The position numbers and the translations under genes are program-made. A stretch of 64,000 nucleotides of DNA, taken from contig CAXXOA010000001.1 in the NCBI GenBank assembly GCA_963666275.2, positions 1,248,001 through 1,312,000 of the forward strand. The letters are read 5' to 3'. The notes under the pieces are model-generated. The model was not told where the DNA came from. It did not search any database and saw only the letters and a list, made by a program, of their open reading frames with translations. How positions within the stretch are numbered: position 1 is the first letter of the stretch; every line of letters starts with the position of its first letter. Shown one piece after another: positions 38,474 through 57,672 of this stretch. This stretch comes from Oceanispirochaeta sp. Lineage in GTDB: Bacteria; Spirochaetota; Spirochaetia; DSM-2461.

Positions 38474-38767
38474 ATGAATATTACTGTCCCGAAGGAATAT
38501 GAATCAGACATTCAGCTTGCGTACGAATATTTATCAAAAGCAGGGTGTACTGAAATCTTTCTCTTCGGTTCATTAGCTGATGATACATGTAACTCCGAAT
38601 CGGATATTGATATTGCCGTTAAAGGGTTAGAGAAGAATAAGTTTTTTCATGTTTATGGAGAGTTATTCAGGATACTGGAACACCCTTTTGATCTCATCGG
38701 GCTGGACTATGATAATGATTTTTCCAAAGAGATCCTGAGAAGCGGTACATTGAAACGTGTCTCCTGA
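38474..38767 (+). CDS. Minimal nucleotidyltransferase (MNT) antitoxin
   Basis: FGS-x10-DID motif. Confidence 0.85.
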   Translation: MNITVPKEYESDIQLAYEYLSKAGCTEIFLFGSLADDTCNSESDIDIAVKGLEKNKFFHVYGELFRILEHPFDLIGLDYDNDFSKEILRSGTLKRVS

Positions 38768-39188
38768 TAAAATCCCATCAGAAAAAATTGAATATGAACT
38801 TTCTCAAATAAATAAAGAGAGTGAAATCATAGAGTTGCTTGCCAGAAAACTAAGTGTTTCCCAATTGGATGAAATAGAATTGCGAGCAGCTGCAGCATCA
38901 ATGCAATCTGTCTATAATGGATATGAAAAGATTCTCATATTAATTTTAAAAAGTTTAAAATACGTTCTTCCTACTACCCAATCCTGGCATTCAGATCTGT
39001 TAGTCATTTCAAAGGATAATAATATCATATCAGAAAGGTTAGAGTCACAGTTAAGGGATTTAATGGCTTTCAGGCATTTTATCCGTCATTCATATAGCTT
39101 TATGCTAGATAGTGAGCAATTGGAACCTTTGTTAAAGAACATGGAGTATTTGCTCAAGGATTTTAAGAGGGAAATCTTAAGTTTTTAA
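38757..39188 (+). CDS. HEPN-domain RNase toxin (HepT-like)
   Basis: RHFIRHSY fits Rx4HxY; overlaps the MNT gene. Confidence 0.82.
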   Translation: MSPDKIPSEKIEYELSQINKESEIIELLARKLSVSQLDEIELRAAAASMQSVYNGYEKILILILKSLKYVLPTTQSWHSDLLVISKDNNIISERLESQLRDLMAFRHFIRHSYSFMLDSEQLEPLLKNMEYLLKDFKREILSF

Positions 39189-39802: not shown

Positions 39803-39953
39803 AAATGTAAGGCAGAGAGGAGAAATCGGGTTTACAATTCCTATGACTCCCATCTGAATACCGGAGTATATCATTCCTATTCCATTCCTCCTGGATATAG
39901 CATCCGATGGAGGATTTTTTTGGGTTAAAGGTTCAGATAGCCATAATTATATA

Positions 39954-40089
39954 GACGTCTAGATAACTATATTCTGGAGAGAATTATACTGCGTGGATGT
40001 CTAGATAACTGTGTTTTTTTTGTTATCTGAGGTGGGGTTGGATGGTAAGATGGGAATTATACTGAACAGTATAATAAGTTATGTTATGC
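39954..40089 (+). other. attI-like site at the head of the cassette array
   Basis: Core GTTATGC at 40083 complements R'' GCATAAC at 42216; no attC stem upstream; repeats GAYGTCTAGATAACT (39954, 39996), inverted GTTATCT (40022), palindrome ATTATACTG-aa-CAGTATAAT (40056-40075). Confidence 0.6.
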
Positions 40090-40118
40090 AGAGCCTAAAA
40101 ATATATTTATAGGAAATA

Positions 40119-41054
40119 ATGATGAGAACATTTGTTGGTATGATAAAGAATAATTTTTCAAATCTATTTTCAATAATAGGCATTTTACTGACGATTTATT
40201 TTTCAGTATTCTACATTCCAAACTATACAGAAGAAATAATTTACAAAAGAATAGAGAATGTGAATAAAGAATTGATTAGCTCCATTCAGGAACTGATATA
40301 TAATAATCAAGATATATCTATTAACAATATTGAAACACTAATTAAAGGAAAAGAACTCAGGGATAATATTGAGTATCCATATTCCGTTGAAGAACTGTTA
40401 ATTCAAGTTCAAGAGACATTCATGTCTAACAACTTTATTCCTCTAGAAGATAGAAAAGTATTTTTTGATAAAACTGATAAGATTAGAAAAGAAATTGTAC
40501 ATATTCAAACTTCGCAGTTAGAGGGAAACAAAACAATAAATTTATTAGGTCTTATTGTATCAATTTTAGGCGTAGCTGTATCCACTATTGGTGGAATAAG
40601 TTTATTTCAGTCAATAAAGATGCAAAAGGAGACTGAAATAAATAAGGAAGTAGATAATAGGAAAGATGATTTTACAAATATTGTCATGAAAGCTATTAGT
40701 TTTGAAGAAAATGTTTACGATAAACTTAAATCTATTTTTGGAGAAAAATCTATTAAAAAAGCCGATCAAGAAAATTCAGGTGTGGATTTTATATTTCAAA
40801 GAGAAGATAAAAAAATCCTTATTGAAGTTAAGTATTCAGAGAGAGGTATATTGAATTCTCAATCTATAATGAAAATTGCATCAATTGCTAAAAGAGAAAA
40901 ATTACCAGTTATTATTATTACTAATTATGATATTAACGACAGTATATTGAATAGAATAAATAAGATTAACACTGAGTTCAATGAACCAATTTTGAAGATA
41001 ATATCAATAAAAAATATAAATAAAATTGAAAATATTATATCGGAGGTACTTTGA
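40119..41054 (+). CDS. Cassette 1 gene A: 2-TM protein with C-terminal restriction-endonuclease-like (PD-D/ExK) domain
   Basis: Two hydrophobic segments; FEENV...GVDFIF...ILIEVKY. Confidence 0.65.
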   Translation: MMRTFVGMIKNNFSNLFSIIGILLTIYFSVFYIPNYTEEIIYKRIENVNKELISSIQELIYNNQDISINNIETLIKGKELRDNIEYPYSVEELLIQVQETFMSNNFIPLEDRKVFFDKTDKIRKEIVHIQTSQLEGNKTINLLGLIVSILGVAVSTIGGISLFQSIKMQKETEINKEVDNRKDDFTNIVMKAISFEENVYDKLKSIFGEKSIKKADQENSGVDFIFQREDKKILIEVKYSERGILNSQSIMKIASIAKREKLPVIIITNYDINDSILNRINKINTEFNEPILKIISIKNINKIENIISEVL

Positions 41055-42208
41055 ATAAAAGGCTCAAATATGTAGAAGATAAAATTAGTAATTGGAAAAA
41101 AAATCTCGAGACATTTTTAAGGGAAAACGATTTATTTGATGATTCATTTTTCCACAGTTATTATGAATATTTTGATTGTGAGCCAAGTAGTTTTCCAGTT
41201 GTATTTGTATTAACAACTGAAGGTTCATTATGGACTGGTTTAAATTATGGATATTCACCGACTGAAAATTGTTTCAATGAGTATATTGAGAAGCAAGAGT
41301 TTTATTATGAAATCCATAGTAGTTGTGTATTACTTTTTTATCTTAGAGAGGATTCAGAACAAGAATTATTTGTGGATTATTTTAAATATCTTTGGGGGAG
41401 AGAAATATTAAAAGAGAACTATTCTCTATTACATAATGATCTATTGAAGGCTATTCAATCTAAAAAAATTGAATTTCATGATTTTAGTCCAAGAGAATTT
41501 GAATATTATATTAATAAGCTCTTTAATGATCTTGGTTACGACACAATTCTTGGTCCTGGTACAAATGATAAAGGAATTGATATTAGAATTATTTCAAATG
41601 ATACAAAAAACTATATTTTAGTTCAAATAAAAAGATATACTGATTCAAACCCAATACATCTCGAAGCAGTAAAAGCTTTATGTTGGGATGTTTACCATGA
41701 AGATAAAAAAGCAATTTCTGGATTATTTGTCACTACGTCAAGATATTTACCAGGAGTAAAGAAGTTTTCGGAAAATAAAAAAATAAAATTAGCAGGTAAG
41801 AGTGATATATACAATTGGAATAATGAAGCCATTAAAAGAAATAATCAAATTTTAGAAAATGTAAATGGTGAAGTTGCAAATTTTTTTTTGTCATATGATT
41901 ACACTAAAGATGTAATTGAAATTAAAAATTCAATTTTTGTTGAGACTTGGGGACATAATATGGTTCGGAATGATTTCTATTTAATTATTTACGAAATAAA
42001 TAATGTCAGTCTTATAATAAAAATTGATAATGAAAAGTTCACAGATCAATTTGGTCAAATCGGTTATGAACGACCCAAAATACCTAATGATTGGAAAAAT
42101 CATAAGATTGAGTTTGCAAGACGAAAAGATAATGATTGGCTTTCCGTTGGTGAGAAGTTCTTAATCCCATGGAATGGAGAGAATATGTATTTTAACTACA
42201 TGGATTGA
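41051..42208 (+). CDS. Cassette 1 gene B: Mrr-like restriction endonuclease domain protein
   Basis: SPREFEYY...LGY...DKGIDI...LVQIKRY...GLFVTTS. Confidence 0.8.
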   Translation: MNKRLKYVEDKISNWKKNLETFLRENDLFDDSFFHSYYEYFDCEPSSFPVVFVLTTEGSLWTGLNYGYSPTENCFNEYIEKQEFYYEIHSSCVLLFYLREDSEQELFVDYFKYLWGREILKENYSLLHNDLLKAIQSKKIEFHDFSPREFEYYINKLFNDLGYDTILGPGTNDKGIDIRIISNDTKNYILVQIKRYTDSNPIHLEAVKALCWDVYHEDKKAISGLFVTTSRYLPGVKKFSENKKIKLAGKSDIYNWNNEAIKRNNQILENVNGEVANFFLSYDYTKDVIEIKNSIFVETWGHNMVRNDFYLIIYEINNVSLIIKIDNEKFTDQFGQIGYERPKIPNDWKNHKIEFARRKDNDWLSVGEKFLIPWNGENMYFNYMD

Positions 42209-42215
42209 ATGCCAT

Positions 42216-42316
42216 GCATAACAAGCTTTTGATACTGTCTGCTCTATTGTCATGCTAATTGCAATGCGCAATAAGCACGCCAACTTAACGAACAGCAGCA
42301 TAAAAGAGTGTTATGT
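42216..42316 (+). other. attC site (cassette 1), 101 bp
   Basis: R'' GCATAAC, R' GTTATGT, internal dyad symmetry. Confidence 0.88.
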
Positions 42317-42386
42317 TGAAAAAATATAGATAAGTTATTATTGATTTTAAAATGACTGATTATATAATTAACTGAAGGAGTAAGAA

Positions 42387-42614
42387 ATGAAAAAGACTCA
42401 ACACGAATATGAAGAAATAATGATTAAAATACTAGATGATAAATCAAGTATAACAATCACTGAATTTATTGATTTTCTTGAAAAGAGGAATGATAACTGG
42501 AATGATCAACAAATTGTTAAAAATATAGTGTCCAATAGGTTTAATTCTCCTTCTCCATTTGTTAATGGGATATTAAAATATAACGAAACTACTGGTGAAA
42601 TAACAAAGGTTTAA
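42387..42614 (+). CDS. Cassette 2 gene A: small hypothetical protein
   Basis: AAGGAG RBS; 75 aa; ends 2 bp before gene B. Confidence 0.65.
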   Translation: MKKTQHEYEEIMIKILDDKSSITITEFIDFLEKRNDNWNDQQIVKNIVSNRFNSPSPFVNGILKYNETTGEITKV

Positions 42615-42616
42615 AT

Positions 42617-44473
42617 ATGGGAAGGATTCCAGGAGATAAAAAGGAAAAACAAAAGATATTAACTAAACTTGACTGTAAAACGTTAGCAGATATTACAGGA
42701 GATATATTATATTTTAATTACAATCATAATAATGTGAAAATTATGGATGGTCCTGGAGATGGAAAAAGAGATATATATTCAGAAGATGAATATGGAATAC
42801 CATGTATAACACAGTGCAAATATCATGAAGATCTTACCAAAACAGTCAGTTCTGATGAAACAGATCAATTAATTCTTGCTTTAGAAAAATTTAAAACAAA
42901 AAAAGGTTATTTTTCCACTACTTCATTTATTTCGCCCCAAGCGAAAAGGGAATATAAAGATAATTATCCAGGTTATTCATTAGATTTTTTTGAAGGATCA
43001 AATATAGTTGATGAGGTTTATTCAAGTCCAATATTAAAAAAAATATGGGTAGATGATATTCATTTTACAAAGCTAGATTTTAGCCTTAATATAGCTTTTG
43101 TTATTATTGATTTAAATAATTCTAAGATAATTAATGATATATTTGTGGAAGATGAATCAATTAAGTTCAACTTTATTAAACAAGCCTATTTTAATTCGAT
43201 TGTTTTTGATAAAAAATTTGATAATATTTTATCAAACGAATTCATTCATTGCTATGTTTCAACAATAAATAATTGCAATATTCATGATACAGATTCATTA
43301 ATAAATAAAATTCTAAGAGATATAATATCCACAAAACATAATAACAATGCTTTCTCAGTTGTTTTTTCATCACCTTATATTACAAATCATGATAATGAAA
43401 ATAAATACTTTTTGTTGGAAGATATTAAACCAATAATTTTTAATATTGATGCTAAAACAAATATAATAGATCACTTTGATTTTATTGTTCCAAAATCTAC
43501 AATAGACTGGGCTTTTCCTGAGAATTTATCTGTTGCTCAAGCACCTTGGGCTTGTTGGTATAATGAAAATATTGATTCTATGATGCAACTTTTTATTGAA
43601 AAAGAATTACCTTTACACTATTTGTCATATGAAACTCCATTTTTTGATTCTTTAAAGCTATATTTAAACAAATCGTTATTTGTGTCTGGTTCAATAAGAA
43701 ATATGAAAAGATTTATTAAAAAAATGAAAATAAATAATCCTGATTGGGAATGTAATTATGGATATAAATCAAAACTTTATGCATGGATGCATCCAATGAT
43801 AGAAATCTTACAGAATAGAAAATATTCAATGCAACAGAATAAAAGCAATTTAGAATGGAATATAATTCCAAATGAAAAGGTTGATTTAAATAAATATAAA
43901 GAATTTAAAGAAAATGTAGAATCATTTCTATATAAATATCATCTTGAACAAATAGATCTAGAAAAAGCTAATTTTATTTCAAAAGCAGAAAAAAAAGATC
44001 TTATAATAGATAAAATAATATACCAATTTGGTAGTGCTGAATTATTTCATGATTTCAATAAACTTCCATTGCCTTTAGATCAGGGAACAAGATTTACTAA
44101 TATTATTAAAATGTGGAAAGTTGAAGGAGATATTAAAAAAATAAGAAAAAGATTAGAAACTATTAATTTTTCTGATGATACTCTTCATGATTTATTAGTT
44201 GAAGTTAAATATGGGCCTTCTACAATGAAACTATTTATAAAAGTAACATTAACATTCGAAATAAAAAATTATCAGTCCTTTACTGTTTTTTTAGAAAATA
44301 ATAGTAGTAAAATCAATACAATCTTAAAAAATATAGATCATGATATAAAAAGCAAATTCTCTGAAGCTAGTGAAGGAACAAAAGAATTTCTGGTGGATGA
44401 ATTAGACTTTAAATTTGATAATAATAAATTTCAAGGAAGACCTTGGATTGCAACTGTACCTAATTCAACATAA
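42617..44473 (+). CDS. Cassette 2 gene B: N-terminal restriction-endonuclease-like domain, large unknown C-terminus
   Basis: DGPGDGKRDI...ITQCKYH...FSTTS; stop codon lies inside R''. Confidence 0.7.
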   Translation: MGRIPGDKKEKQKILTKLDCKTLADITGDILYFNYNHNNVKIMDGPGDGKRDIYSEDEYGIPCITQCKYHEDLTKTVSSDETDQLILALEKFKTKKGYFSTTSFISPQAKREYKDNYPGYSLDFFEGSNIVDEVYSSPILKKIWVDDIHFTKLDFSLNIAFVIIDLNNSKIINDIFVEDESIKFNFIKQAYFNSIVFDKKFDNILSNEFIHCYVSTINNCNIHDTDSLINKILRDIISTKHNNNAFSVVFSSPYITNHDNENKYFLLEDIKPIIFNIDAKTNIIDHFDFIVPKSTIDWAFPENLSVAQAPWACWYNENIDSMMQLFIEKELPLHYLSYETPFFDSLKLYLNKSLFVSGSIRNMKRFIKKMKINNPDWECNYGYKSKLYAWMHPMIEILQNRKYSMQQNKSNLEWNIIPNEKVDLNKYKEFKENVESFLYKYHLEQIDLEKANFISKAEKKDLIIDKIIYQFGSAELFHDFNKLPLPLDQGTRFTNIIKMWKVEGDIKKIRKRLETINFSDDTLHDLLVEVKYGPSTMKLFIKVTLTFEIKNYQSFTVFLENNSSKINTILKNIDHDIKSKFSEASEGTKEFLVDELDFKFDNNKFQGRPWIATVPNST

Positions 44474-44586: not shown

Positions 44587-45777
44587 ATGATTGAAATAAA
44601 TTCTATTTTAAGAAAAAAATTACTGAAAGAAGATATCAAATATTACTCAGCAACACAAATAGATGAACTTTTTAAAAGAATAGATGAGCTACGAGCTATT
44701 TTTCCAGATGGGAATATTCTTGAGAAAATTTATTGCCGAATCCGCTGGTATGGTTCTGCAGGAATTGCAATAAGAAATAAAATTATAAAATTAACAATTG
44801 AGTATAATAAAAGATCTCATGATCAGATTATGGTTAACCCAACTATTGATACAGTATTAGATTTCAAAACAGTTCGAGTAAATTATAAAGGTAGAAACCA
44901 GCTAATTAATGATATTTGGAAAAATGAACATAAAAAGAATAACTTTGGTATTGCAGATTTAAGAGGGATTAATCTTAATAACGTACAGTTCAACTGGTTG
45001 TTTATTAAAAATGTCAATTTTATGTATTCAGACTTTGATTCTATATTAATAAATTACTGTAAATTTGAAAATACTCACTTTAGTTATAGTAATTTTTTTA
45101 AATGTTCAATTTTACAAAGTAAGATAATAAATAACACCAGTTTTAATAATTCAAGTTTTAAAAAAACTTACTTTGCAGGAATATCATTTAAGCACTTTTA
45201 TAATTCAAAAATTGATTATGCAAATACCTTTGTATTTATATATTATATTTTAAAAAATAGAATAAGAAAGAGAAGTTTTAATCCATTTTATGGATTACCA
45301 TTTACTATTATTGAAAATATACTTGATACAGGAGAAATTAAATCAAGGCAAATTGGATTGGAACGCTTTTCCAGAATAATTGACAGGATAGAACTCTCTG
45401 AATCGATTACTATGTATGAATCATATTCAAATTTTAGAGTAGTTATATACATATTAAATATTCTCATGACTAAGAACTGGACATCTTACATAAATATGTT
45501 TTTTTCATTTTTAGTATCCAACTTATTCTTTTCTTATCTCTATAGTCAAAGTATTAATGGCTTTATAACGGATTCAAAAGAAGTAACTCTTAGTCTACTC
45601 GATTCATTCTATTTCAGTATAATAACAATTACAACATTAGGTTATGGGGATATTTCTCCACATTCTATAACTGTAAAAATAATGGTGATTTGTGAAGTTA
45701 TATTTGGTGTAATTATATTAGGATTATTTGTTAATACTATTAGTGGAAAGATATCTACAAAGAAGTATTTACAATAA
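44587..45777 (+). CDS. Cassette 3: pentapeptide-repeat + 2-TM K+ channel domain protein
   Basis: ADLRGINLNNVQF-type repeats; YFSIITITTLGYGDI selectivity filter. Confidence 0.8.
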   Translation: MIEINSILRKKLLKEDIKYYSATQIDELFKRIDELRAIFPDGNILEKIYCRIRWYGSAGIAIRNKIIKLTIEYNKRSHDQIMVNPTIDTVLDFKTVRVNYKGRNQLINDIWKNEHKKNNFGIADLRGINLNNVQFNWLFIKNVNFMYSDFDSILINYCKFENTHFSYSNFFKCSILQSKIINNTSFNNSSFKKTYFAGISFKHFYNSKIDYANTFVFIYYILKNRIRKRSFNPFYGLPFTIIENILDTGEIKSRQIGLERFSRIIDRIELSESITMYESYSNFRVVIYILNILMTKNWTSYINMFFSFLVSNLFFSYLYSQSINGFITDSKEVTLSLLDSFYFSIITITTLGYGDISPHSITVKIMVICEVIFGVIILGLFVNTISGKISTKKYLQ

Positions 45778-45809
45778 TTCGATGTAACACATATAAGGGC
45801 TCCAGTTGT

Positions 45810-46250
45810 CAAGGAATAAAACAGCCCCTGAACTGAATTTTACTCCTTTCAGCTCCATAAAAAATTAAACATATGCCGTTATGCGATATAAATTATATCC
45901 TGTCTTGTTTCTATCAATGGGCTGCAGAAGATTCTGCTCCAAACACATATTGATGGTTACTCATAGAAATACATCCGTACCCAAAACTGTCACAATCAAA
46001 AAAGGAATTCACAGCAAGTGTGTTCCAGTTACTTACCGTGATCAGCCTGGTGCAGAATACTCTTTACTTCACATATTGGTCCTTTATAAGGGCCATTACA
46101 GAGGTCTAATCAAACAATTCTACTTCTCAAAGTTATTGAAGCAATCTGATCGTAGCGGGTTTTCTTCCCCAAAAAAATGACCGGAATTGCTTCTTCCTTA
46201 TGCTGGAATAGTTATATCGCAGGCTCCTCTGTAACGCCCAATCTCAGATC
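45810..46250 (-). ncRNA. Candidate bridge/seek RNA of the IS1111-type element (boundaries approximate)
   Basis: Position 3' of the transposase as in IS1111; short matches to attC cores and to the element junctions. Confidence 0.5.
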
Positions 46251-47288
46251 TGAATAAAATATCGTATAATCGAATGGTTCCCTCCTTTTTAGTATGTAAT
46301 ACACAGAACGAGCCAACTTATGAGAGATGATAGATAGGGCTTTCCCTCTGCCATATCGATTCATCAGTTTATTATGATAAAGTTTCGATCTGTCATTATC
46401 TTTGATAAAAAGTACTGCGGCCTCTGAAAATGCCCATTTAAGATGTGCATTACCAATCTTGGTATTTTTTGATCCCATACGCTTCCCTGACGATTCACGT
46501 GGGCATTTGACAAGCCGGCAGTAAGAGACGAAGTTTTGTACTCTAGGAAATCTTTTAATATCTTCAATCTCATAAAGTATGGTCAAACCAAGGATTTTCC
46601 CTATTCCGGGGACAGTTTTCAATAGTGAAAATGCAACCGGATCGTGAAATCTTGCTCCTTTGAGTATAATTGAATCCAGATTCCGAATCTGCTTTTCTAG
46701 GGTTGTTATTACAGCTAGGTCTGTCTGGATATTAATATTTACCAATGGAATAGTGAAATGCTCTGCTAAATCGTCACGGTTTATTTTGTAGGTGATCTTT
46801 TTCCCGATGGGAGGAAGATTATATTGATAATTTGTATTCTGAATATGGGAGAGAAAATCACTCTTTTTCTTAACAAGGTATTGTCTTCTTCTGAGAAGAT
46901 CCCTGGTTGCTCGCATCCGTGCTGGGTAAACATATGCCATGGGAATCATGCCGCCTCGCAACAGGGATGCTATTTTCATTGAATCGATCTTATCATTTTT
47001 AGTTTTCCCATTGCTGATTGCTTTCATATAAAGAGCATGCCCTAGCACGAAGGGGATGCTTTCTTTGGCACAAATATCTGCAATCCAGTACCAGGTAAAC
47101 ATACACTCAACGCAAACAACCAGGTCTTCTCGATAAGGATTTATAGCTTTAAGAAATACATCAGCATCAGTTTGTATATTTTTGTGATAGAGTATTTCAC
47201 CTGTTTGGTCCATAATACAGAGATACATCACTTTGGTATGGAGATCTATTCCGCAGTAATACTTATGCTGCTTGGTATAGAATGTCAT
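46212..47288 (-). CDS. IS110-family DEDD transposase/recombinase
   Basis: GIDLH, VEC, KNDKIDS, VPGIG, RESSGK; start placed at MTFYTKQ after AGGAGGTG RBS. Confidence 0.95.
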   Translation of the reverse strand: MTFYTKQHKYYCGIDLHTKVMYLCIMDQTGEILYHKNIQTDADVFLKAINPYREDLVVCVECMFTWYWIADICAKESIPFVLGHALYMKAISNGKTKNDKIDSMKIASLLRGGMIPMAYVYPARMRATRDLLRRRQYLVKKKSDFLSHIQNTNYQYNLPPIGKKITYKINRDDLAEHFTIPLVNINIQTDLAVITTLEKQIRNLDSIILKGARFHDPVAFSLLKTVPGIGKILGLTILYEIEDIKRFPRVQNFVSYCRLVKCPRESSGKRMGSKNTKIGNAHLKWAFSEAAVLFIKDNDRSKLYHNKLMNRYGRGKALSIISHKLARSVYYILKRREPFDYTIFYSDLRLGVTEEPAI

Positions 47289-47581
47289 AGGACACCTCCT
47301 TGATGGTAAATGACTCTTATATTTTATCATTCTCCGGGGAGCCCTTAATAAGTATCAAACAAATGATGCAGTCGAAGCTATAGATCACATTTCTTGCAGA
47401 AATTGCTTCGACAATGGAATTGTTCTTTTCAAATAACGAATTGGTGTTTAGAGTATAGATGCAAGAAAAGCGCCTATACCTGCCCTTCGGACAGGCCGCT
47501 CCGCAGCATATTTGGGCGTTATATAGCGTACAAATTGTATAATCAATTGACAATATGTACATGTGTGATAAAATTCAAAAT

Positions 47582-48748
47582 ATGATAAATAGGCAAATGG
47601 AGCAGGAATTACAGCTCCTAAAGAATGAATTCCCAATAATTGCGATACTTGGTCCAAGACAATCTGGAAAAACAACATTATCCAAAATAGTTTTTCCAGA
47701 ATATCAATATATTTCCCTCGAGGATATTGATCACCGAGAATTTGCGACTAATGATCCCCGCGGCTTTCTAAACAAATACTCAAAAAATATTATATTTGAT
47801 GAAATTCAACGTGTTCCACAGCTTATGTCTTATCTCCAATCCCATGTGGATAGTTTGAACGAGAATGGAAAAATAATTATAACCGGTTCCCATAACTTTT
47901 TCTTGATGGAGCAAATAAGCCAGTCTCTGGCAGGACGTGTAGGGATTACAAAATTATTACCATTTTCAATCTATGAGTTAACCAATGAACAGAAATCATT
48001 AAACGATCATATTTTTACAGGGGCCTATCCAAGAATTTATGATCAGAATATCAGGCCCGAAGTATTTTATAAAAACTATATTTCTACTTACATTGAAAAA
48101 GATATCAGGCAGATAAAACAGGTTACAAAACTCGATTTTTTTATGAAATTCATGCGATTATTGGCAGGAAGAACTGGCCAGGAACTGAATTTATCGACAA
48201 TTAGTGAAGAATGTGGTGTATCACATAATACTATAAGTGAATGGATCTCCATATTAGAAGCCAGTTTTTTAATCTATAAATTAAAGCCCTACCATAAAAA
48301 CTATAATAAACGTTTAGTTAAGAACTCAAAAATTTATTTCACCGATACAGGTCTAGTCTGTAGCCTGCTAGGGATACGAAAACCAGAGGAATTGGATTAC
48401 CACTTTTTAAAAGGAAATATTTTTGAAACATTTGTAATCTCTGAATTCATTAAAGGATGTTACAATACAGGTGAAAAATTCGATATGTACTTCTGGAGAG
48501 ATAACCATAAAAAAGAAATTGATTTGATTATTGATTATGGAATCGACAAATTCGGAATTGAGATTAAAAGAAGTGAAACCATCCAGGAGAAGTATTTTTC
48601 AGGATTAACATATTGGATGAATTTATCAGAGACAAAATCTGAGAATATGTTCCTTATCTATGGAGGAGAAGACTCCTATATTAGGAACAATATGAATATA
48701 AATGGTTGGAACAAAATCTTTAATGGTATAATCCAACGCGCTATATAA
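47582..48748 (+). CDS. Cassette 4: AAA ATPase with DUF4143-type C-terminus
   Basis: GPRQSGKTT, FDEIQ, ITGS, SLAGR, KIYFTDTG, EIDLI...IEIK. Confidence 0.88.
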   Translation: MINRQMEQELQLLKNEFPIIAILGPRQSGKTTLSKIVFPEYQYISLEDIDHREFATNDPRGFLNKYSKNIIFDEIQRVPQLMSYLQSHVDSLNENGKIIITGSHNFFLMEQISQSLAGRVGITKLLPFSIYELTNEQKSLNDHIFTGAYPRIYDQNIRPEVFYKNYISTYIEKDIRQIKQVTKLDFFMKFMRLLAGRTGQELNLSTISEECGVSHNTISEWISILEASFLIYKLKPYHKNYNKRLVKNSKIYFTDTGLVCSLLGIRKPEELDYHFLKGNIFETFVISEFIKGCYNTGEKFDMYFWRDNHKKEIDLIIDYGIDKFGIEIKRSETIQEKYFSGLTYWMNLSETKSENMFLIYGGEDSYIRNNMNINGWNKIFNGIIQRAI

Positions 48749-48906
48749 CATAAAAATGCACGAGACGTTCCTATTGTCACTTTTCTTGCAGAAAATCTTC
48801 AGTTAACCATAAAATTATTTCCAAATAAGAAATAGTTGTTTAAAATAATGCAAGAAAACCGCCAATGCCTGGCAAGCCAGGCCGTCACGCTGGTGATTTT
48901 GGCGTT
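48743..48906 (+). other. attC site (cassette 4, long type), cut after GTT by the IS1182-family element
   Basis: R'' ATATAAC (CGCTATATAAC complements GTTATATAGCG at 47518); R' GTT at 48904-48906. Confidence 0.85.
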
Positions 48907-50695
48907 GAGACTGTAGAAAAAGTCACCTTTTCTACAGCTCTCCCCCAAATCATGGTAAAATTTTCAAAAAGGGAGGTTTTCAATAATGGCTAGATATAAA
49001 GACTATTCTTATGACCAGACAATGATGATCCCCGTAAGTTTTGAAAAACAGATTTTACCAGGAACTTTTGAATACACCCTATGCCATCTAATTGATGATA
49101 AAATCGATATGTCTGTCTTTGAAAACCATTACGAAAATGAAGAAACAGGTGCTCCCGCCTACGATCCTGCCATCCTTTTAAAGATTGTACTTTTCGCCTA
49201 TTCAAAAGGGATAAACAGCAGCAGAAAAATTGAACAATTATGCAGGGAGAATATAGTCTGTATGGCCCTGGCAGCCGATGCACGGCCCCATTTTACAACC
49301 ATTGCCGACTTCATATCCTCATGCCATCAGGAATGCCAATCCCTTTTTACAATGATTATCTCAGTATGTTACTCCCAAGGATTGATTGGAAAAAACATGT
49401 TTGCCATAGATGGCTGCAAGATATCCTCCAACTGCTCAAAAGAGTGGAGTGGAACAAAAACAGAGCTTTTTGCCAAGGCAAAGAAAATTGAAAAATCCGT
49501 TAACTACCTTATAGAAAAGCATAAGAAAACTGATATCAAATGGGATGACAAAGAACAGCGATTAAAAGAAAAAAAAGCCATTAAAAAACTCAAAGCCAAA
49601 TCTGACAGAATTTATAAATGGCTTGATACGCACTATGAACGACTTGGCAGCCAGGACCAACCCATTAAAAGCAATATAATCGATAATGAGAGCGCTAAAA
49701 TGTCCACCGGACACGGTGTCATTCAGGGCTATAATGGTATTGCAGCTGTGGATGACAAGCATCAGCTTATTATATTCGCCGATGCTTACGGCGATGTAAA
49801 CGAATCAGGACACCTTACAGAGATTCTCAGCGGGATTGATAAAAGCTGTAAAGATTCCCACATCGATGATGATATCTACAAACACGTGACAGTTACAGCT
49901 GATACAGGATTCCATAACAAAAGAAATATGGTGATGATCAGCGAGCAGAAAATAGATGCTTATATCCCGGATAATCAGTTCAGAAAAAGGCAAGTGGCCT
50001 TTCAGGATGCAGGTAGATATAAGAAGAAAGTCGCCAACTGGAAACCGGAAAAAGGTAAGCACTACTTCAGACCGGAAGATTTCTATTTTGATACAGTTTC
50101 GAACAAACTGATATGTCCCGCCGGACATGCTATGTGGCTGAAATCTCCCAACTTCAGGAGCAATGACGGTCGGTATATTGGTAAGTCCTACCAGGGTTAC
50201 ATCCGGAACTGCAGGGATTGCAAACTTCGTTCAAAATGCATCCGTAAAGAAACAACCAAAGCCCGTCAGGTTGCCCTGCTGAAAGAAGTCACGGATGCAA
50301 AGGGTACTAATCCTATGAATGCAATGAAGGATAAAATTGATACGCCCTATGGCAGGTCTGTTTATGCCAAAAGGATGAGTACAGTAGAGCCGGTATTTGG
50401 GCATATTGCCGGGATAAAAAAGCTGAATCGCTTTACCTTACGGGGAACAGAGAAAGTCAGAACGCAGTGGTTGCTATATTGCATGGTGCATAATATCGGT
50501 AAAATTCAGCGGTATAGTGTGTAGGAATGCGATAGAACCAATGAGATTGGAAGTTTTAAGGGATATATTCAATTGTAAAGGAATATATGCGGGTTTAATC
50601 GGATAGAAATTAGTAAATGGAGAGATGAATAATTCTCTGAATAATTCTATTTAGAGAAGAGGAAAAATTCTTAAATTGAGTTTTTTTACAATCTC
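48907..50695 (+). mobile_element. IS1182-family insertion sequence with GTT target duplication
   Basis: IRL GAGACTGTAGAAAAAGTC, IRR GAGTTTTTTTACAATCTC; GTT on both sides. Confidence 0.88.
48986..50524 (+). CDS. IS1182-family transposase (DUF772 + DDE)
   Basis: GAPAYDP, SSRKIE, PHFTTIADF, AIDGCKI, QGYN, ADTGF, VEPVFGHI, RFTLRG. Confidence 0.92.
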   Translation: MARYKDYSYDQTMMIPVSFEKQILPGTFEYTLCHLIDDKIDMSVFENHYENEETGAPAYDPAILLKIVLFAYSKGINSSRKIEQLCRENIVCMALAADARPHFTTIADFISSCHQECQSLFTMIISVCYSQGLIGKNMFAIDGCKISSNCSKEWSGTKTELFAKAKKIEKSVNYLIEKHKKTDIKWDDKEQRLKEKKAIKKLKAKSDRIYKWLDTHYERLGSQDQPIKSNIIDNESAKMSTGHGVIQGYNGIAAVDDKHQLIIFADAYGDVNESGHLTEILSGIDKSCKDSHIDDDIYKHVTVTADTGFHNKRNMVMISEQKIDAYIPDNQFRKRQVAFQDAGRYKKKVANWKPEKGKHYFRPEDFYFDTVSNKLICPAGHAMWLKSPNFRSNDGRYIGKSYQGYIRNCRDCKLRSKCIRKETTKARQVALLKEVTDAKGTNPMNAMKDKIDTPYGRSVYAKRMSTVEPVFGHIAGIKKLNRFTLRGTEKVRTQWLLYCMVHNIGKIQRYSV

Positions 50696-50800
50696 GTTAT
50701 TCAGAAATAGGGTACGAACCCGTATATACAGGATGTAAGAAGCTGAAAATTGATACAATAATGTGATTCAATAATCAGAATCACACAAAAGGAGACAAAA

Positions 50801-52162
50801 ATGGGACTAAAGCGAGACTCAATTCTGGACATGGATATTACGGATTTCTATTCAGAAATAAAATCCAAAGAAAGATTCAACGGCCAAAGAGCCAAACTCA
50901 TCCCAACCTACAAACTCGGCGATGAAATGGCCTTAACCTCCACATTTTTAGCCTCCTTAAAACTGATTAAAGAATTCAGGAAATTCATACATTCCGCAGT
51001 AAACCTCACCAACTCAGGCAAAGTCCACGTTTTTACTGAGTTTGTATTCATAGAGGAAAATAAACGGGTTGACGGTCTTATCATCATAGAACGGGGAAGC
51101 AAAATAGTTGATGCTGCTTTACTGGAAATGAAGAACGGAAAATCCGAATTGGATTCTCAGCAGATCACTGACTACATGGATATTGCCGGCAAATATTCCA
51201 TTCCCAGACTAATTACAGTTTCCAATCAATTTGTCTCTCACCCAACCCAGAGTCCCCTTGTAGGAATAAAGCAGAAAAAATGTGTAGACCTCTATCACCT
51301 GTCCTGGTCCTATATCCTCACATTAGCTTATGTGCTGCTCACTGATAATGAAACAAACATAGCAGATCCAGATCAGGTTGAAATCATGAAGGAAGTGGTC
51401 GATTATTTTGAAAATACCAAATCCGGCGTTCTCGGTTTTTCTGAAATGAAGCCTGGCTGGTCGAATGTTTCCGAAAGGATGGTGAAAGGGGAGAAGCTCA
51501 AAAAAGATGACAATGATGTTATTGAAGCAGTAGAAAGCTGGCTTCAGGAAGAAAGAGATATGTCACTTAAACTAAGCAGACAGTTGGGGTCTCTTGTTAT
51601 TTCCGGACAGAATAAATATAAAAATGATTTGAAAGGCAGACTTGATGAGGACAGGAAAAAACTCTGTACAGAAGGTAAACTGGATTCAATGTTGAGGATA
51701 AACGGAGCCGCTTCTCCCATCACTATAACCAGTGATTTTCAGAAAAAATCCTTTGAGTTTAAATCCTCCTTAACTGCTCCCCAGGACAGTAAAACTCTGA
51801 AAGGTCAGGTCGGGTGGCTGAAAAAACAGATTAAAAAGATGGATGACAGGAATGAAGAGTCCTTCTTCACTTTAAAATCAAACCTTATGATTGATATCAA
51901 AATCAAGAATAAACAATCCCAGAGAAAAACAATCGATGAGCTGGACCAGTTCTGCAACGACTATAAGAATGATTACCTGAAGGAATTTGAAATTGTTCTT
52001 ATCTGTGATCTGGGAAGCCGGTTCCTGCAGAAACGGAAAGTTATCGATGAGCTGGAAGACACTCTTTCCGAGTACTATAAAAATGTGGTTAAACACCTGA
52101 CTAAATGGGTCAAACCGGCTCCGGAAATTAGAAATCTTGCAATGGATCTTCAGGAAGCCTGA
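50801..52162 (+). CDS. Cassette 5 gene A: hypothetical protein with PD-(D/E)xK-like motif
   Basis: TEF...RVDGLI...ALLEMKNG...QITDY; AAGGAG RBS; cassette core GTTATTC at 50696. Confidence 0.6.
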   Translation: MGLKRDSILDMDITDFYSEIKSKERFNGQRAKLIPTYKLGDEMALTSTFLASLKLIKEFRKFIHSAVNLTNSGKVHVFTEFVFIEENKRVDGLIIIERGSKIVDAALLEMKNGKSELDSQQITDYMDIAGKYSIPRLITVSNQFVSHPTQSPLVGIKQKKCVDLYHLSWSYILTLAYVLLTDNETNIADPDQVEIMKEVVDYFENTKSGVLGFSEMKPGWSNVSERMVKGEKLKKDDNDVIEAVESWLQEERDMSLKLSRQLGSLVISGQNKYKNDLKGRLDEDRKKLCTEGKLDSMLRINGAASPITITSDFQKKSFEFKSSLTAPQDSKTLKGQVGWLKKQIKKMDDRNEESFFTLKSNLMIDIKIKNKQSQRKTIDELDQFCNDYKNDYLKEFEIVLICDLGSRFLQKRKVIDELEDTLSEYYKNVVKHLTKWVKPAPEIRNLAMDLQEA

Positions 52163-52184
52163 GAATTTATAGGTAAATAGAAAA

Positions 52185-53012
52185 TTGCGCTTAAAACGTG
52201 TATATCAGATAATCGAACCAGCAAAGACTGGAGACAAAGCCAGCAAAATATTTGATTTATGTATCATAAGTTTAATCATTATAAATATATTCGCTGTCAT
52301 TATCAGTTCATTCTCCAATCTGCCAAGGGGCATATACCCATTGTTGGATACAGTAGAAATATTTTCTATAGTGATTTTTACAGTTGAATATTTACTGAGG
52401 CTTATTACAGCCCCCTATAAATATCCCCATAGAAAAATCTGGGTTCCATATATCCTGTATATATTCTCTTCTATGGCGATCATAGATTTGATGGCAATTC
52501 TGCCATTCTATCTGCCTTTTATCATAAAAATTGATCTCAGATCTTTAAGAATACTCCGGTTGGTACGTCTGCTCCGAATCCTTAAATTGAACAGATACAC
52601 CAAATCTATGAAAGTACTGGGCCGTGTCATAAAGCGGAAAAAGGAAGAACTGATCGTTACGGTATTTATAACAGGAATCCTGATGCTTCTGGCTGCTTCT
52701 ATCATGTTTTATATAGAAAATGAAACTCAACCCGAAGCATTTCCCAATATCATAGCGTCATTCTGGTGGGCTATTGCGACATTAACAACCGTTGGATACG
52801 GAGATATATATCCGGTGACCTTTCTGGGGAAATTCCTGGCAGGAATTATTGCCTTCCTGGGAATCGGATTGGTTGCACTGCCTACCGGGATTATCAGTTC
52901 CGGATTTATTGAAGAAGTGGAAAGCCGTAAAATAATTAAGAAGGGGAGATCCCGGGTAAAAATCAAGAGGAGGAAGAGAAAGAGGAAGGGGCAGAGGAAT
53001 AGACTGGCATAA
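52185..53012 (+). CDS. Cassette 5 gene B: 6-TM voltage-gated K+ channel (ion transporter)
   Basis: S4 RSLRILRLVRLLRILK; WWAIATLTTVGYGDIYP. Confidence 0.9.
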   Translation: MRLKRVYQIIEPAKTGDKASKIFDLCIISLIIINIFAVIISSFSNLPRGIYPLLDTVEIFSIVIFTVEYLLRLITAPYKYPHRKIWVPYILYIFSSMAIIDLMAILPFYLPFIIKIDLRSLRILRLVRLLRILKLNRYTKSMKVLGRVIKRKKEELIVTVFITGILMLLAASIMFYIENETQPEAFPNIIASFWWAIATLTTVGYGDIYPVTFLGKFLAGIIAFLGIGLVALPTGIISSGFIEEVESRKIIKKGRSRVKIKRRKRKRKGQRNRLA

Positions 53013-53126
53013 TAAAAGTAATAATATAAATTTAAATGTTTTTTTCTCAACATGATATTAAAAAAGGTTACTCTAATTATAGTAAGTTCCTTAAATGTAT
53101 GGTGGCATTTCAATATGAATTTTTAT

Positions 53127-53419
53127 ATATTGCTGGGATAAAAAAGCTGAATCGCTTTACCTTACGGGGAACAGAGAAAGTCAGAACGCAGTGGTTGCTA
53201 TATTGCATGGTGCATAATATCGGTAAAATTCAGCGGTATAGTGTGTAGGAAAGCGATAGAACCAATGAGATTGGAAGTATTAAGAAATATATTCAATTGT
53301 AATGGAATATATGCGGGTTTAATCGGATAGAAATTAGTAAATGGAGAGATGAATAATTCTCTGAATAATTCTATTTAGAGAAGAGGAAAAATTCTTAAAT
53401 CGAGTTTTTCTACAGTCTC
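53127..53419 (+). mobile_element. Truncated IS1182-family copy (3' 293 bp with IRR)
   Basis: Near-identical to 50403-50695; IRR GAGTTTTTCTACAGTCTC directly followed by cassette core GTTATAT. Confidence 0.92.
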
Positions 53420-53426
53420 GTTATAT

Positions 53427-54431
53427 GTGGAAGGCTCAAAAAAGGACTTGCTATATATGCAGAATAGAGGACTATTTAAAGATATTTTTAAAAATTCTCA
53501 AATAACAACCACAAGAGAATTAAAAATTACTTTATTAAAGTCATTAGATATTTGGGTTTTTACTGCTTTATCAAATGAAATAAATGATAACACTAATATT
53601 AAATCTTCGATTCAAAAACAAATAAATGATTTTTGCTTCCCTCAAGACGATTTTAAAAGACTTCCTGTTTACTATATTTCTATTCGACCAAAAGTACGAA
53701 TTATAAAATGTAAAAAAATGAATTATTGTGATAATTCTTCAATGAGCTTTACGATAACAGAAGGCACAAAAAAATATAAAATTAAAACAAAAATTCAATC
53801 AATTGCCAATTTCCTGAATGTTGATGTAAAAGAAATAACGGAAGTACTTTTTCAAGATAAATATATATTTTGTAAATATAAGAATGACCACGGAATGATA
53901 ATTACTGTTTATGATCTTTTAAATCTATCAGAGTTTCGCCTTCAGGAAAAAAATGAAATATATTATATCGGTTATACTAAGAATCCATCGAAGAGACCAT
54001 TTGATGGCAATCATTCGGGTCTTAATACTGTTTTATATAATTATTATGACAAAAGAGAGCATGATATATTTATCAGCTATCAGCAATTTCATGTCAATTC
54101 ACTAATAGAAGTCCCAAATATGGTTTTTCAAGCTAGCAATACAATGCTTGATGAGATAGCAATAACAACAGAAGCAAAGATAATTGAGTCATCTCTAATA
54201 GAAAGATATATTCCAAATTTAAGGAAAAATTATTTATCAGAATCAGGATATTTAAAGAATGTTTTTATCCAAGAACTAAATGATGCCAAAATAGAAACCC
54301 TAAACTTCTTATTAGATTATTCAATTTCGGGTTCACTATTTAGGTATAGAAATAACTATAATTCTATTGATAATTTTAGGATTGCTGTAAAAGAAAATAA
54401 ACTAGAAATACAACATATAACAAAGCCATGA
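53427..54431 (+). CDS. Cassette 6: hypothetical protein, possibly with a GIY-YIG-like domain
   Basis: EIYYIGYTKNPSKRPF...H...IIESSLI...P. Confidence 0.55.
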   Translation: MEGSKKDLLYMQNRGLFKDIFKNSQITTTRELKITLLKSLDIWVFTALSNEINDNTNIKSSIQKQINDFCFPQDDFKRLPVYYISIRPKVRIIKCKKMNYCDNSSMSFTITEGTKKYKIKTKIQSIANFLNVDVKEITEVLFQDKYIFCKYKNDHGMIITVYDLLNLSEFRLQEKNEIYYIGYTKNPSKRPFDGNHSGLNTVLYNYYDKREHDIFISYQQFHVNSLIEVPNMVFQASNTMLDEIAITTEAKIIESSLIERYIPNLRKNYLSESGYLKNVFIQELNDAKIETLNFLLDYSISGSLFRYRNNYNSIDNFRIAVKENKLEIQHITKP

Positions 54432-54511
54432 AACTGTTATGGCAAACTGTCACAGAAAATGCATGGCATTTTTTGCGCCAATTCACCATGCAGCTTATGG
54501 CGATGTTGTAT
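54415..54511 (+). other. attC site (cassette 6), 97 bp
   Basis: ACATATAAC complements GTTATATGT at 53420; R' GTTGTAT; TGTCAC...GCGCCA inner motif. Confidence 0.85.
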
Positions 54512-56081: not shown

Positions 56082-56432
56082 ATGCATGAGATTTCATTTT
56101 ATATAGAAGAAAATGGCAAATCTCCTGTTGAAGAATTTCTTGATGCTTTGAAGGCTAAGGATGCTCAAAAGGTCGTTTGGGTACTCCAACTGATAGAACA
56201 GCACGATATTATCCCAAAGGCCTATTTCAAGAAACTGACAAACACTGATGGCATCTGGGAAGTAAGAGCTCAATCAGGAAATAATATTTACCGGCTACTC
56301 TGTTTTGTAGAAGGACAAAAAGTCATTATTTTGACCAATGGTTTTCAGAAGAAGACACCAAAGACTCCAAAGAAAGAAATCCAACAGGCAGAGAAAAGAA
56401 AAATGGATTGGATAAGGAGAAATAAGAAATGA
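56082..56432 (+). CDS. RelE/HigB-like (Gp49-like) toxin
   Basis: [36 protein letters not shown]. Confidence 0.88.
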
Positions 56433-56704
56433 GCGATTTACAAAAATATATATCTAAAAGAAAAAAGGATGATCCCGAGTTCGAGAAAGACTTTGACAAG
56501 GGATATGACAACTTCCGGATTGGTGCAGTTTTAAGGCAGGCCAGACTCGAAAAAGGGATAACCCAGGAAGAACTGGCAAATCTGGTAAATACGAAGAAAA
56601 CAGCCATATCACGAATTGAAAATCATGCAGAAGATATCAGACTTTCAACACTTGAGAAAATTGCCCATGCTCTTGATAAAGAGATACGGGTGGAGATACT
56701 CTAA
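56429..56704 (+). CDS. HigA-like HTH antitoxin
   Basis: [13 protein letters not shown]...AISRIEN; overlaps toxin stop. Confidence 0.88.
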
Positions 56705-56748
56705 AGAATAGAAGAATTGCTGTATTGGTGCATTATTGAAAAAATGCG

Positions 56749-56916
56749 GTATAACAAACTAATGCACCAGACTTTCCTATTGTCACATTTCTTGCTGCAT
56801 TGATCTCTCCTACAATTATTCCTTACAAATAAGAAAATACAATTTACAATAAATCGCAAGAAAAGCGTCTATACCTGGCAAGCCAGGCCGCTGCGCAGCA
56901 TATTTTGGTGTTATAA
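56749..56916 (+). other. attC site (cassette 9, long type), 168 bp
   Basis: R'' GTATAAC, R' GTTATAA; shares TATTGTCAC.TTTCTTGC...GCAAGAAAA and CCTGGCAAGCCAGG with the attC at 48743. Confidence 0.88.
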
Positions 56917-57057
56917 AGCCCTTCGTTCGCAATTAAAAAATAATTACATACCAGTTAGATATTAATGATCATAGTATTTTATTGCTTAGAAGAGTAATTG
57001 TGAAATTGATTCACAAGGCTTTATATGGTACAATAAAAAGACTACTGGAGGTAGGAT

Positions 57058-57339
57058 ATGAATTTTGCAGAAGACATTAAACCAATTTCGTATATAAAAA
57101 CAAATGCGGCTGAAATGTTAAAACGCGTAAATGATACACATAATCCAATCATCATCACTCAGAACGGAGAAGCAAAGGCAGTGTTGCTCGATACAGAAAC
57201 ATATCAAGATATGAGGAATAGTCTTGGAATACTAAAAATCTTATCTGAGAGTGAAAAGGATATTCAAAAAGGTCTTGTTCATAAGAATGAAGATGTTTTC
57301 TCGCAATTAGAATCTAAAATATTTTCACAAGACAAATAG
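57058..57339 (+). CDS. Phd/YefM antitoxin
   Basis: IKPISYIK...PIIITQNGEAKAVL. Confidence 0.9.
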   Translation: MNFAEDIKPISYIKTNAAEMLKRVNDTHNPIIITQNGEAKAVLLDTETYQDMRNSLGILKILSESEKDIQKGLVHKNEDVFSQLESKIFSQDK

Positions 57340-57348
57340 TGTATTCCA

Positions 57349-57672
57349 ATGACATATGAAATTTTATGGACAGATTCAGCAAAGCAAGATCTAACAGAAA
57401 TTATTGAATATATTGCTTTCAATGAAATAGAAATAGCAAAGAAACAATTTCTTAGAATTAAAGAATCGGCAGAAAAATTAGAATCTTTTCCTGATCAAGG
57501 TAGAATTATACCTGAGTTATTAAACCAAAATATTAATAAATACCGTGAATTGATAATCTCCCCATGGAGAATAATGTATAAAATAGAAGGAAATACTGTC
57601 TACATATTAGCAGTAATTGATGGCAGAAGAAATATAGAAGATGTACTGATGAAAAGGCAAATAAGGAAATAG
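57349..57672 (+). CDS. RelE/ParE toxin
   Basis: WTDSAKQDL..I..YI, FPDQGRIIPE, RIMYKI, ILAVIDGRR. Confidence 0.9.
   Translation: MTYEILWTDSAKQDLTEIIEYIAFNEIEIAKKQFLRIKESAEKLESFPDQGRIIPELLNQNINKYRELIISPWRIMYKIEGNTVYILAVIDGRRNIEDVLMKRQIRK

Follow-up and report, generated by a model that had tools for sequence, protein, structure and literature searches.

An IS1182-family insertion sequence situated at the crossover GTT of integron attC sites

The element and its attC target

We analyzed a 64,000-nucleotide stretch of an Oceanispirochaeta sp. genome (assembly GCA_963666275.2, contig CAXXOA010000001.1, positions 1,248,001 to 1,312,000), hereafter the window, in which an insertion sequence (IS) of the IS1182 family lies inside an array of integron gene cassettes. 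The array spans from an attI-like site near position 40085 to about 57700. Within it, the full-length element occupies positions 48907 to 50695 of the plus strand. It is 1,789 bp long, is bounded by 15-bp terminal inverted repeats (48907-48921 on the left and 50681-50695 on the right, the latter differing from the lineage consensus at two positions), and carries one open reading frame (ORF), a transposase gene of 512 amino acids (aa) at 48986-50524 on the same strand. The trinucleotide GTT directly precedes the element (48904-48906) and directly follows it (50696-50698), forming a 3-bp target-site duplication.

The transposase belongs to the IS1182 family: residues 11-508 score 275.7 bits against the model NF033551 (cutoff, 270), and the protein contains the Pfam domains DUF772 and DDE_Tnp_1_6. 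The element as a whole also shows the features of the family, namely a length of about 1.8 kb, a single ORF, short terminal inverted repeats at both ends, and a 3-bp target duplication. In an alignment of 33 homologues, residues D142, D233, D306, E468, and Y460/R463, together with the cysteines C377/C409/C412/C418, were invariant (33/33). By analogy, we take D142, D306, and E468 to be the DDE catalytic residues. The protein also has a cysteine-rich insertion (about residues 360-435), a candidate for the part that reads the target. A search by sequence for a solved structure of the transposase returned none. The AlphaFold model (predicted local distance difference test [pLDDT], 73.6) was closest to Tn5 transposase (E = 5e-4), with a low TM-score of 0.34, in keeping with an RNase H-like fold. 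IS110 models did not match the transposase, which also lacks similarity to the window's own IS110 protein. A promoter scan gave 11 weak sites, compared to 5.9 in shuffled sequences. Among the best 80 of 423 genome loci, the closest transposases came from Oceanispirochaeta metagenome-assembled genomes (MAGs), with 97% and 90% identity.

The DNA to the left of the element is a complete gene cassette (47518-48906, plus strand) that ends in an attC site (48741-48906). The cassette encodes a 397-aa ATPase with AAA_14 and DUF4143 domains (47555-48748), and its start, GTTATATAG at 47518, mirrors the R'' core CTATATAAC (48741-48749), which overlaps the stop codon of the ATPase gene. The site further contains an L' box, TGA, at 48894-48896 and the R' GTT at 48904-48906, so that R''/R' cores, an L''/L' stem, and a location at the end of the cassette gene are all present. 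Its core is identical to that of IS-free attC sites, and its bottom strand folds with z = -3.4, with the L-box stem imperfect in the minimum-energy fold. A preliminary description of this DNA had placed the full copy between two GTT triplets at the attC crossover core, which these results bear out. It had also stated that the element separates an attC from the next cassette. The attC on the left is real; to the right of the full copy, no matching R'' was found (no GAATAAC before 59665), and the DNA there is therefore a cassette by position only. Its attC was probably lost together with the left 1.5 kb of a second copy.

That second copy (copy 2; 53127-53419, plus strand) consists of the right 293 bp of the element, with 96.9% identity to the full copy over 293 nt; its left part and the attC belonging to it are deleted. 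It entered a cassette (53420-54507, plus strand) with a 334-aa ORF and an attC at 54413-54507. The sequence directly after the copy, GTTATATGT, mirrors the R'' ACATATAAC at 54413, and this attC folds canonically (z = -2.9), consistent with the earlier statement that a truncated, diverged copy ends at a cassette core. Because the two copies are 97% identical and 2.7 kb apart, they could reflect one event followed by local duplication. We consider this very improbable. The flanks of the two copies differ from the fifth base after the element end (after GTTAT), and copy 2 retains the consensus right repeat, shared with the elements of genomes G011 and G009, in which copy 1 has two changes. The pattern seen across the lineage is, moreover, independent of this pair. 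By its sequence, copy 2 is thus an independent, decayed insertion.

A third copy in the genome is a remnant with 89% identity, located in the array of the genome's integron integrase. Its lost left end adjoins what we presume, from a motif, to be the end of a group IIC intron. Between the two copies in the window lie a potassium-channel-like gene and a 453-aa ORF (50801-52162) that has no Pfam match and no attC of its own. Homologues of this ORF were used to look for the site of the full copy in its empty state; only 3 of 37 relatives matched, at 29-47% identity, which was too distant to be informative.

Junctions and targets of related elements

Homologues of the transposase number at least 7,986. 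To characterize the insertion sites of related elements, we sampled the best 80 of the 423 genome loci and 34 metagenome loci, all chosen by protein similarity. These loci share about 40-97% identity and come from spirochaetes, Proteobacteria, Desulfobacterota, Nitrospirota, Fibrobacterota, and Elusimicrobia. Element ends were located with one pattern, and loci lacking the pattern or a flank were not used. The left junction was GTT in 78 of 84 rows, a set in which six rows are additional end matches lying beyond the main elements and one repeats a site. The right junction was GTT in 54 of 64 rows, followed by A in 50, and 6 further rows read AAC, which is GTT on the other strand.

By our own count, elements with both ends carried the same triplet on each side in 47 of 49 cases, in agreement with the earlier claim that the invariant R' GTT is duplicated. 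These cases include AAT/AAT (L054) and CAT/CAT (L068). For two insertions within genes (L056 and L076), the reading frame is open with a single GTT. In public contigs, the only data type used, from three further samples belonging to two studies, the attC end of the window ran straight into another cassette (run X7), i.e., an empty site with one GTT. The element's left end occurred beside other attC sites in runs X7 and X8, and its right end preceded the cassette that starts IS-free at 47518 in runs X4 and X8. We rejected the possibility that GTT forms part of the element ends, given AAT/AAT, CAT/CAT, and the empty sites with a single GTT. The GTT is a true 3-bp target duplication generated by DDE insertion. 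No circle junction or excision product was seen in the public contigs, a data type that cannot exclude them, and no RNA run was among the matches listed for sequencing runs with the element.

Of the 84 left junctions, 77 were folded as the bottom strand upstream of the element, omitting three AAC rows, three short flanks, and one duplicate. We called a site attC by eye if AAC, a spacer, the L'/L'' stem, a second spacer, and GTT were all present. In this manual classification, 49 flanks were clear attC sites, 10 were partial, and 18 were not attC. Clear cases came from spirochaetes, Gammaproteobacteria, Desulfoluna and other deltaproteobacteria, Nitrospirota, Fibrobacterota, and Elusimicrobia, and also from Pseudoalteromonas piscicida, whose transposase is 40% identical. 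Values of z <= -2.5 were obtained for 31 of the 77 flanks and for none of the 18 non-attC flanks; because the folds used fixed 140-nt windows, the signal of short attC sites is diluted. Twenty-two attC sites aligned with MAFFT too poorly to support a covariance model. One attC model, based on sequence alone, trained on flanks next to the IS, and extending into the IS end, was used solely to find further attC sites. The preliminary description had named insertion of other copies at random GTT or non-attC sites as a refutation. Instead, clear attC sites account for 49 of the 77 flanks and partial ones for 10 more, although attC makes up a small minority of GTT motifs.

Individual replicons gave a similar picture. 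In genome G009, five of six copies were at attC. A plasmid collection yielded two matches, both on large Pseudoalteromonas replicons (40-41% identity) with nothing annotated: one has an attC and GTT/GTT, and the other has only a right end, at GTT. A subgroup with 43-48% identity (L147-L150) inserts at this same GTT of attC, but its transposase gene runs opposite to the attC; L069 likewise has the opposite orientation. We also observed short nonautonomous derivatives that share these ends and the duplicated triplet (L072:758-904, ~147 bp; L076:407-502, ~96 bp; L044:8341-8780, ~440 bp). At L038:6547-6563, an element that we take to be IS66-like, its start set from its terminal letters, is inserted in the left inverted repeat of a copy borne by attC.

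Target recognition and competing explanations

Taken together, these observations make it probable that a DDE transposase of a broad IS1182 lineage directs insertion to attC and prefers its right-hand end. The targeting is a strong preference and is not absolute. The preliminary description had proposed guidance by sequence or by structure, and the data partly distinguish the two. In 13 of the 18 non-attC flanks, T-N-A was found at -10 to -8 or -11 to -9 relative to the GTT, where the L' box of attC lies, whereas about 2-3 were expected. This loose T-N-A..GTT motif occurs at chance level in the window (57 + 50 = 107 sites) compared to about 7 attC sites. The sequence GGRCGTTA has 102 sites in the genome, and a tighter, 16-letter consensus has 38 sites (in G000, the genome of the window), of which 3 were recognized as attC. 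Because the T-N-A..GTT motif is too common, something more must favor attC, be it the hairpin, a longer and more diffuse preference, or selection against other insertions.

A relative with 50% identity in a Nitrospirota MAG (G038; L081-L100) bears on this question. Among its 21 copies, all 18 near-identical aligned copies sit at the loop GTT of one short repetitive extragenic palindrome (REP)-like hairpin family, often inside a repeat of ~190 bp with terminal inverted repeats, and one further copy lies outside the hairpin family. The same genome has 35 empty hairpins with one GTT, compared to 1 in a control. This pattern suggests either that hairpin-forming DNA together with GTT is used or that this lineage has been retargeted. 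Since its target is a hairpin loop that lacks T-N-A, no single rule of sequence or of structure fits all lineages.

The element also has a hairpin at its own left end (48907-48942, plus strand), formed by the left inverted repeat and an internal inverted copy. This structure, reported in the preliminary description, is real (z = -5.95). It is missing in many relatives inserted at attC, and it is present in the genome's other IS1182-like element (about 25% identity), whose three examined copies lie at A/T tracts (3/3) and not at GTT (0/3). We therefore regard the hairpin as incidental and rejected it as a targeting device.

Several points weigh against attC-directed insertion or limit its reach. 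The 18 of 77 folded flanks that are not attC include some within genes, and the third copy in the genome ends at GTC. The attC calls were made manually with the IS-adjacent flank known to the caller, the loci were picked by protein similarity with several from the same genomes, and because insertions in genes are selected against, the share of attC is inflated to an unknown degree. Some of the non-attC sites bearing T-N-A may be decayed attC or attI. The triplets are unequal in L013 (GAT/GTT), and the flanks of L073b are mirror images. To these may be added the missing T-N-A in the G038 target.

It is possible that a short sequence preference, for (G/A)C-GTT-A or T-N-A..GTT, combined with purging of insertions elsewhere would pile copies up at attC. 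Off-target sites do retain GTT and mostly T-N-A, and if coding sites were removed from the 38 tight-consensus sites, the 3 recognized attC sites would form a large share of the remainder. This explanation is nonetheless unlikely, given that many attC targets are used despite a poor fit to the tight consensus (L052, L131, L133, and L146), that the loose motif greatly outnumbers attC in the window, that the G038 copies are concentrated in one hairpin family, and that insertions in genes survive (L056 and L076). A different route would be integration by the integron integrase (IntI) of a GTT-junction circle of the element, with the duplication as a recombination product, or, in a weaker form, recruitment of the transposase by bound IntI. 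The insertion point coincides with the IntI crossover and orientation is fixed; L013 has unequal triplets, and L149 contains a tandem junction of two element ends with a 3-bp spacer. In addition, 10 of 38 genomes of the family have a transposase homologue, and IntI is found in 9 of these 10 compared to 15 of the 28 without the transposase, kin that are not independent. We consider either form highly unlikely because non-GTT duplications (AAT/AAT and CAT/CAT, a DDE signature) exist, empty sites have a single GTT, and copies occur in hosts without detected IntI; the DDE residues are also intact.

The hosts concerned are MAGs, where incompleteness may account for a missing integrase, a further caveat to attC-directed insertion without IntI. 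At E <= 1e-40, no IntI was found in G038, G039, or G042, and in G040 and G041 all IntI matches were broken or partial. G038 carries 21 copies and G039 several. Insertion thus appears to be independent of IntI, as hosts without a detectable integrase have many copies, at attC-like sequences or REP-like hairpins. Finally, RNA-guided targeting could in principle operate through the 170-bp noncoding region after the transposase gene, as IS1111 elements that target attC use such an RNA (PMC11187229, as excerpted) and the region in the window has a short stretch resembling an attC arm. That stretch is altered in the relatives with 97% and 90% identity, and the transposase lacks similarity to the IS110 enzyme. 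Across 16 aligned sequences of the region, we found 0 predicted pairs and no conserved sequence or structure beyond the inverted repeat, which makes a guide RNA extremely improbable.

For attC-directed insertion, the data show a 3-bp staggered insertion that duplicates the GTT of R', in an orientation fixed by lineage and with no need for IntI. The enzyme most likely reads a double-stranded L'-spacer-R' signature (T-N-A, 7-8 bases, GTT, and a purine), the half-site bound by IntI, and hairpin-forming DNA beside the GTT probably strengthens the preference. Where attC is scarce, attC-like sequences or hairpins are used instead. The upstream attC should remain recombinogenic because the element starts with GA(G/A), leaving GTT, purines, and the stem in place; the filled site in the window reads GTTGAGA. 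IntI crossover lies between G and TT, and given this position the element would become the 5' part, or head, of the next cassette. A landing place between genes would be harmless, and IntI could carry the element along.

Known attC specialists and the surrounding array

We compared the element to known systems using extracts of the cited papers. At the level of titles and abstract openings, no description was found of an IS1182 element that targets attC, nor of the combination of a 3-bp GTT duplication with attC preference in this family. The element belongs to a known family, and its target habit is apparently new. In the extracts, target habits within the IS1182 family are heterogeneous and sometimes palindromic (PMC5678879 and PMC4923244, both citing Siguier 2015). 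The staphylococcal IS1272/TnSha1, a member of the family, inserts at hairpin-forming DNA (PMC4923244), where it deletes part of the stem-loop, with no duplication, no sequence consensus, and both orientations (PMC4923244, PMC5678879). In contrast, the element described here leaves the target hairpin whole, duplicates 3 bp, has a GTT consensus, and keeps a fixed orientation.

The IS1111-attC group (ISPa21, ISPst6, and ISKpn4) comprises IS specialized on attC (PMC11187229, PMC3001079), and its elements are RNA-guided (PMC11187229). Like group IIC-attC introns, they target attC near its 5' end and antisense to the array (PMC3001079). Our element has a DDE rather than a DEDD (IS110-type) transposase, sits at the 3' crossover GTT, is mostly in the sense orientation, and shows no conserved guide RNA, as the region downstream of the gene has no conserved structure across 16 sequences. 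The introns are retroelements that enter the bottom strand and part a gene from its attC (PMC3001079); they are likewise mobile elements specialized on attC, with different chemistry and position. Unlike both, the element here leaves the attC nearly intact. Extracts of two recent integron surveys name no attC-targeting elements other than the IS1111 group (PMC12444791, PMC11089894), and those of a Treponema integron paper mention transposases in cassettes without detail (PMC3607928).

In the literature as excerpted, the attC specialists cited are thus only IS1111-attC elements and IIC-attC introns, both of which use RNA to find their sites. A DDE transposase acting at the crossover without destroying the site would be a new route by which arrays are colonized, fragmented, and possibly mobilized. 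Fragmentation is suggested by the two truncated copies in this genome, both of which lost the adjoining attC. If IntI still uses the filled site, the element could travel as the leading part of the following cassette, spread by IntI. It is possible, though somewhat doubtful, that such elements form a third, cross-phylum class of integron parasite, in which a protein-only DDE transposase has converged on the IntI half-site, reads attC hairpin and sequence, and leaves a working site from which IntI spreads the element. Tools for attC annotation would be affected, as a filled site ends in GTTGA(G/A). The lineage also offers a clean system for studying how IS1182 enzymes choose structured targets: some members use attC, one uses REP, and one subgroup has a flipped orientation, so that they can be compared.

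Other attC parasites are present in the same genome. An IS110-family element (45785-47356; ORF 46212-47330, minus strand; NF033542 over cutoff) lies in antisense in the same array, where a different attC has its R'' AAC immediately before the element, which is the known IS1111-attC pattern, and the remainder of the attC it occupies matches an IS-free site in the integron array of contig C1. Group IIC-like introns and their remnants are abundant in the genome's arrays (L035, L160, L161, and L163; C1, C2, and C3), such that parasites of three kinds, group IIC-like introns, IS110 elements, and IS1182 elements, coexist.

The window array starts at an attI-like site (40060-40090, plus strand) with no adjacent integrase gene. 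The surrounding region (39940-40090) is nearly identical to the region beside intI at C1:1063340-1063480 in the same genome, and the only integron integrase over the cutoff in the genome is about 224 kb from the window array. This is probably a second attI-headed array, served in trans. In or beside the array (38474-39188, 41051-44473, and 56082-57672) are MNT-HepT, RelE/helix-turn-helix (HTH), and Phd-ParE toxin-antitoxin pairs and two Mrr-like nuclease genes. Two potassium-channel-like genes are located at 44587 and 52185, and two tandem 42-bp G-rich repeats, 98% identical, occupy positions 2241-2324 of the window.

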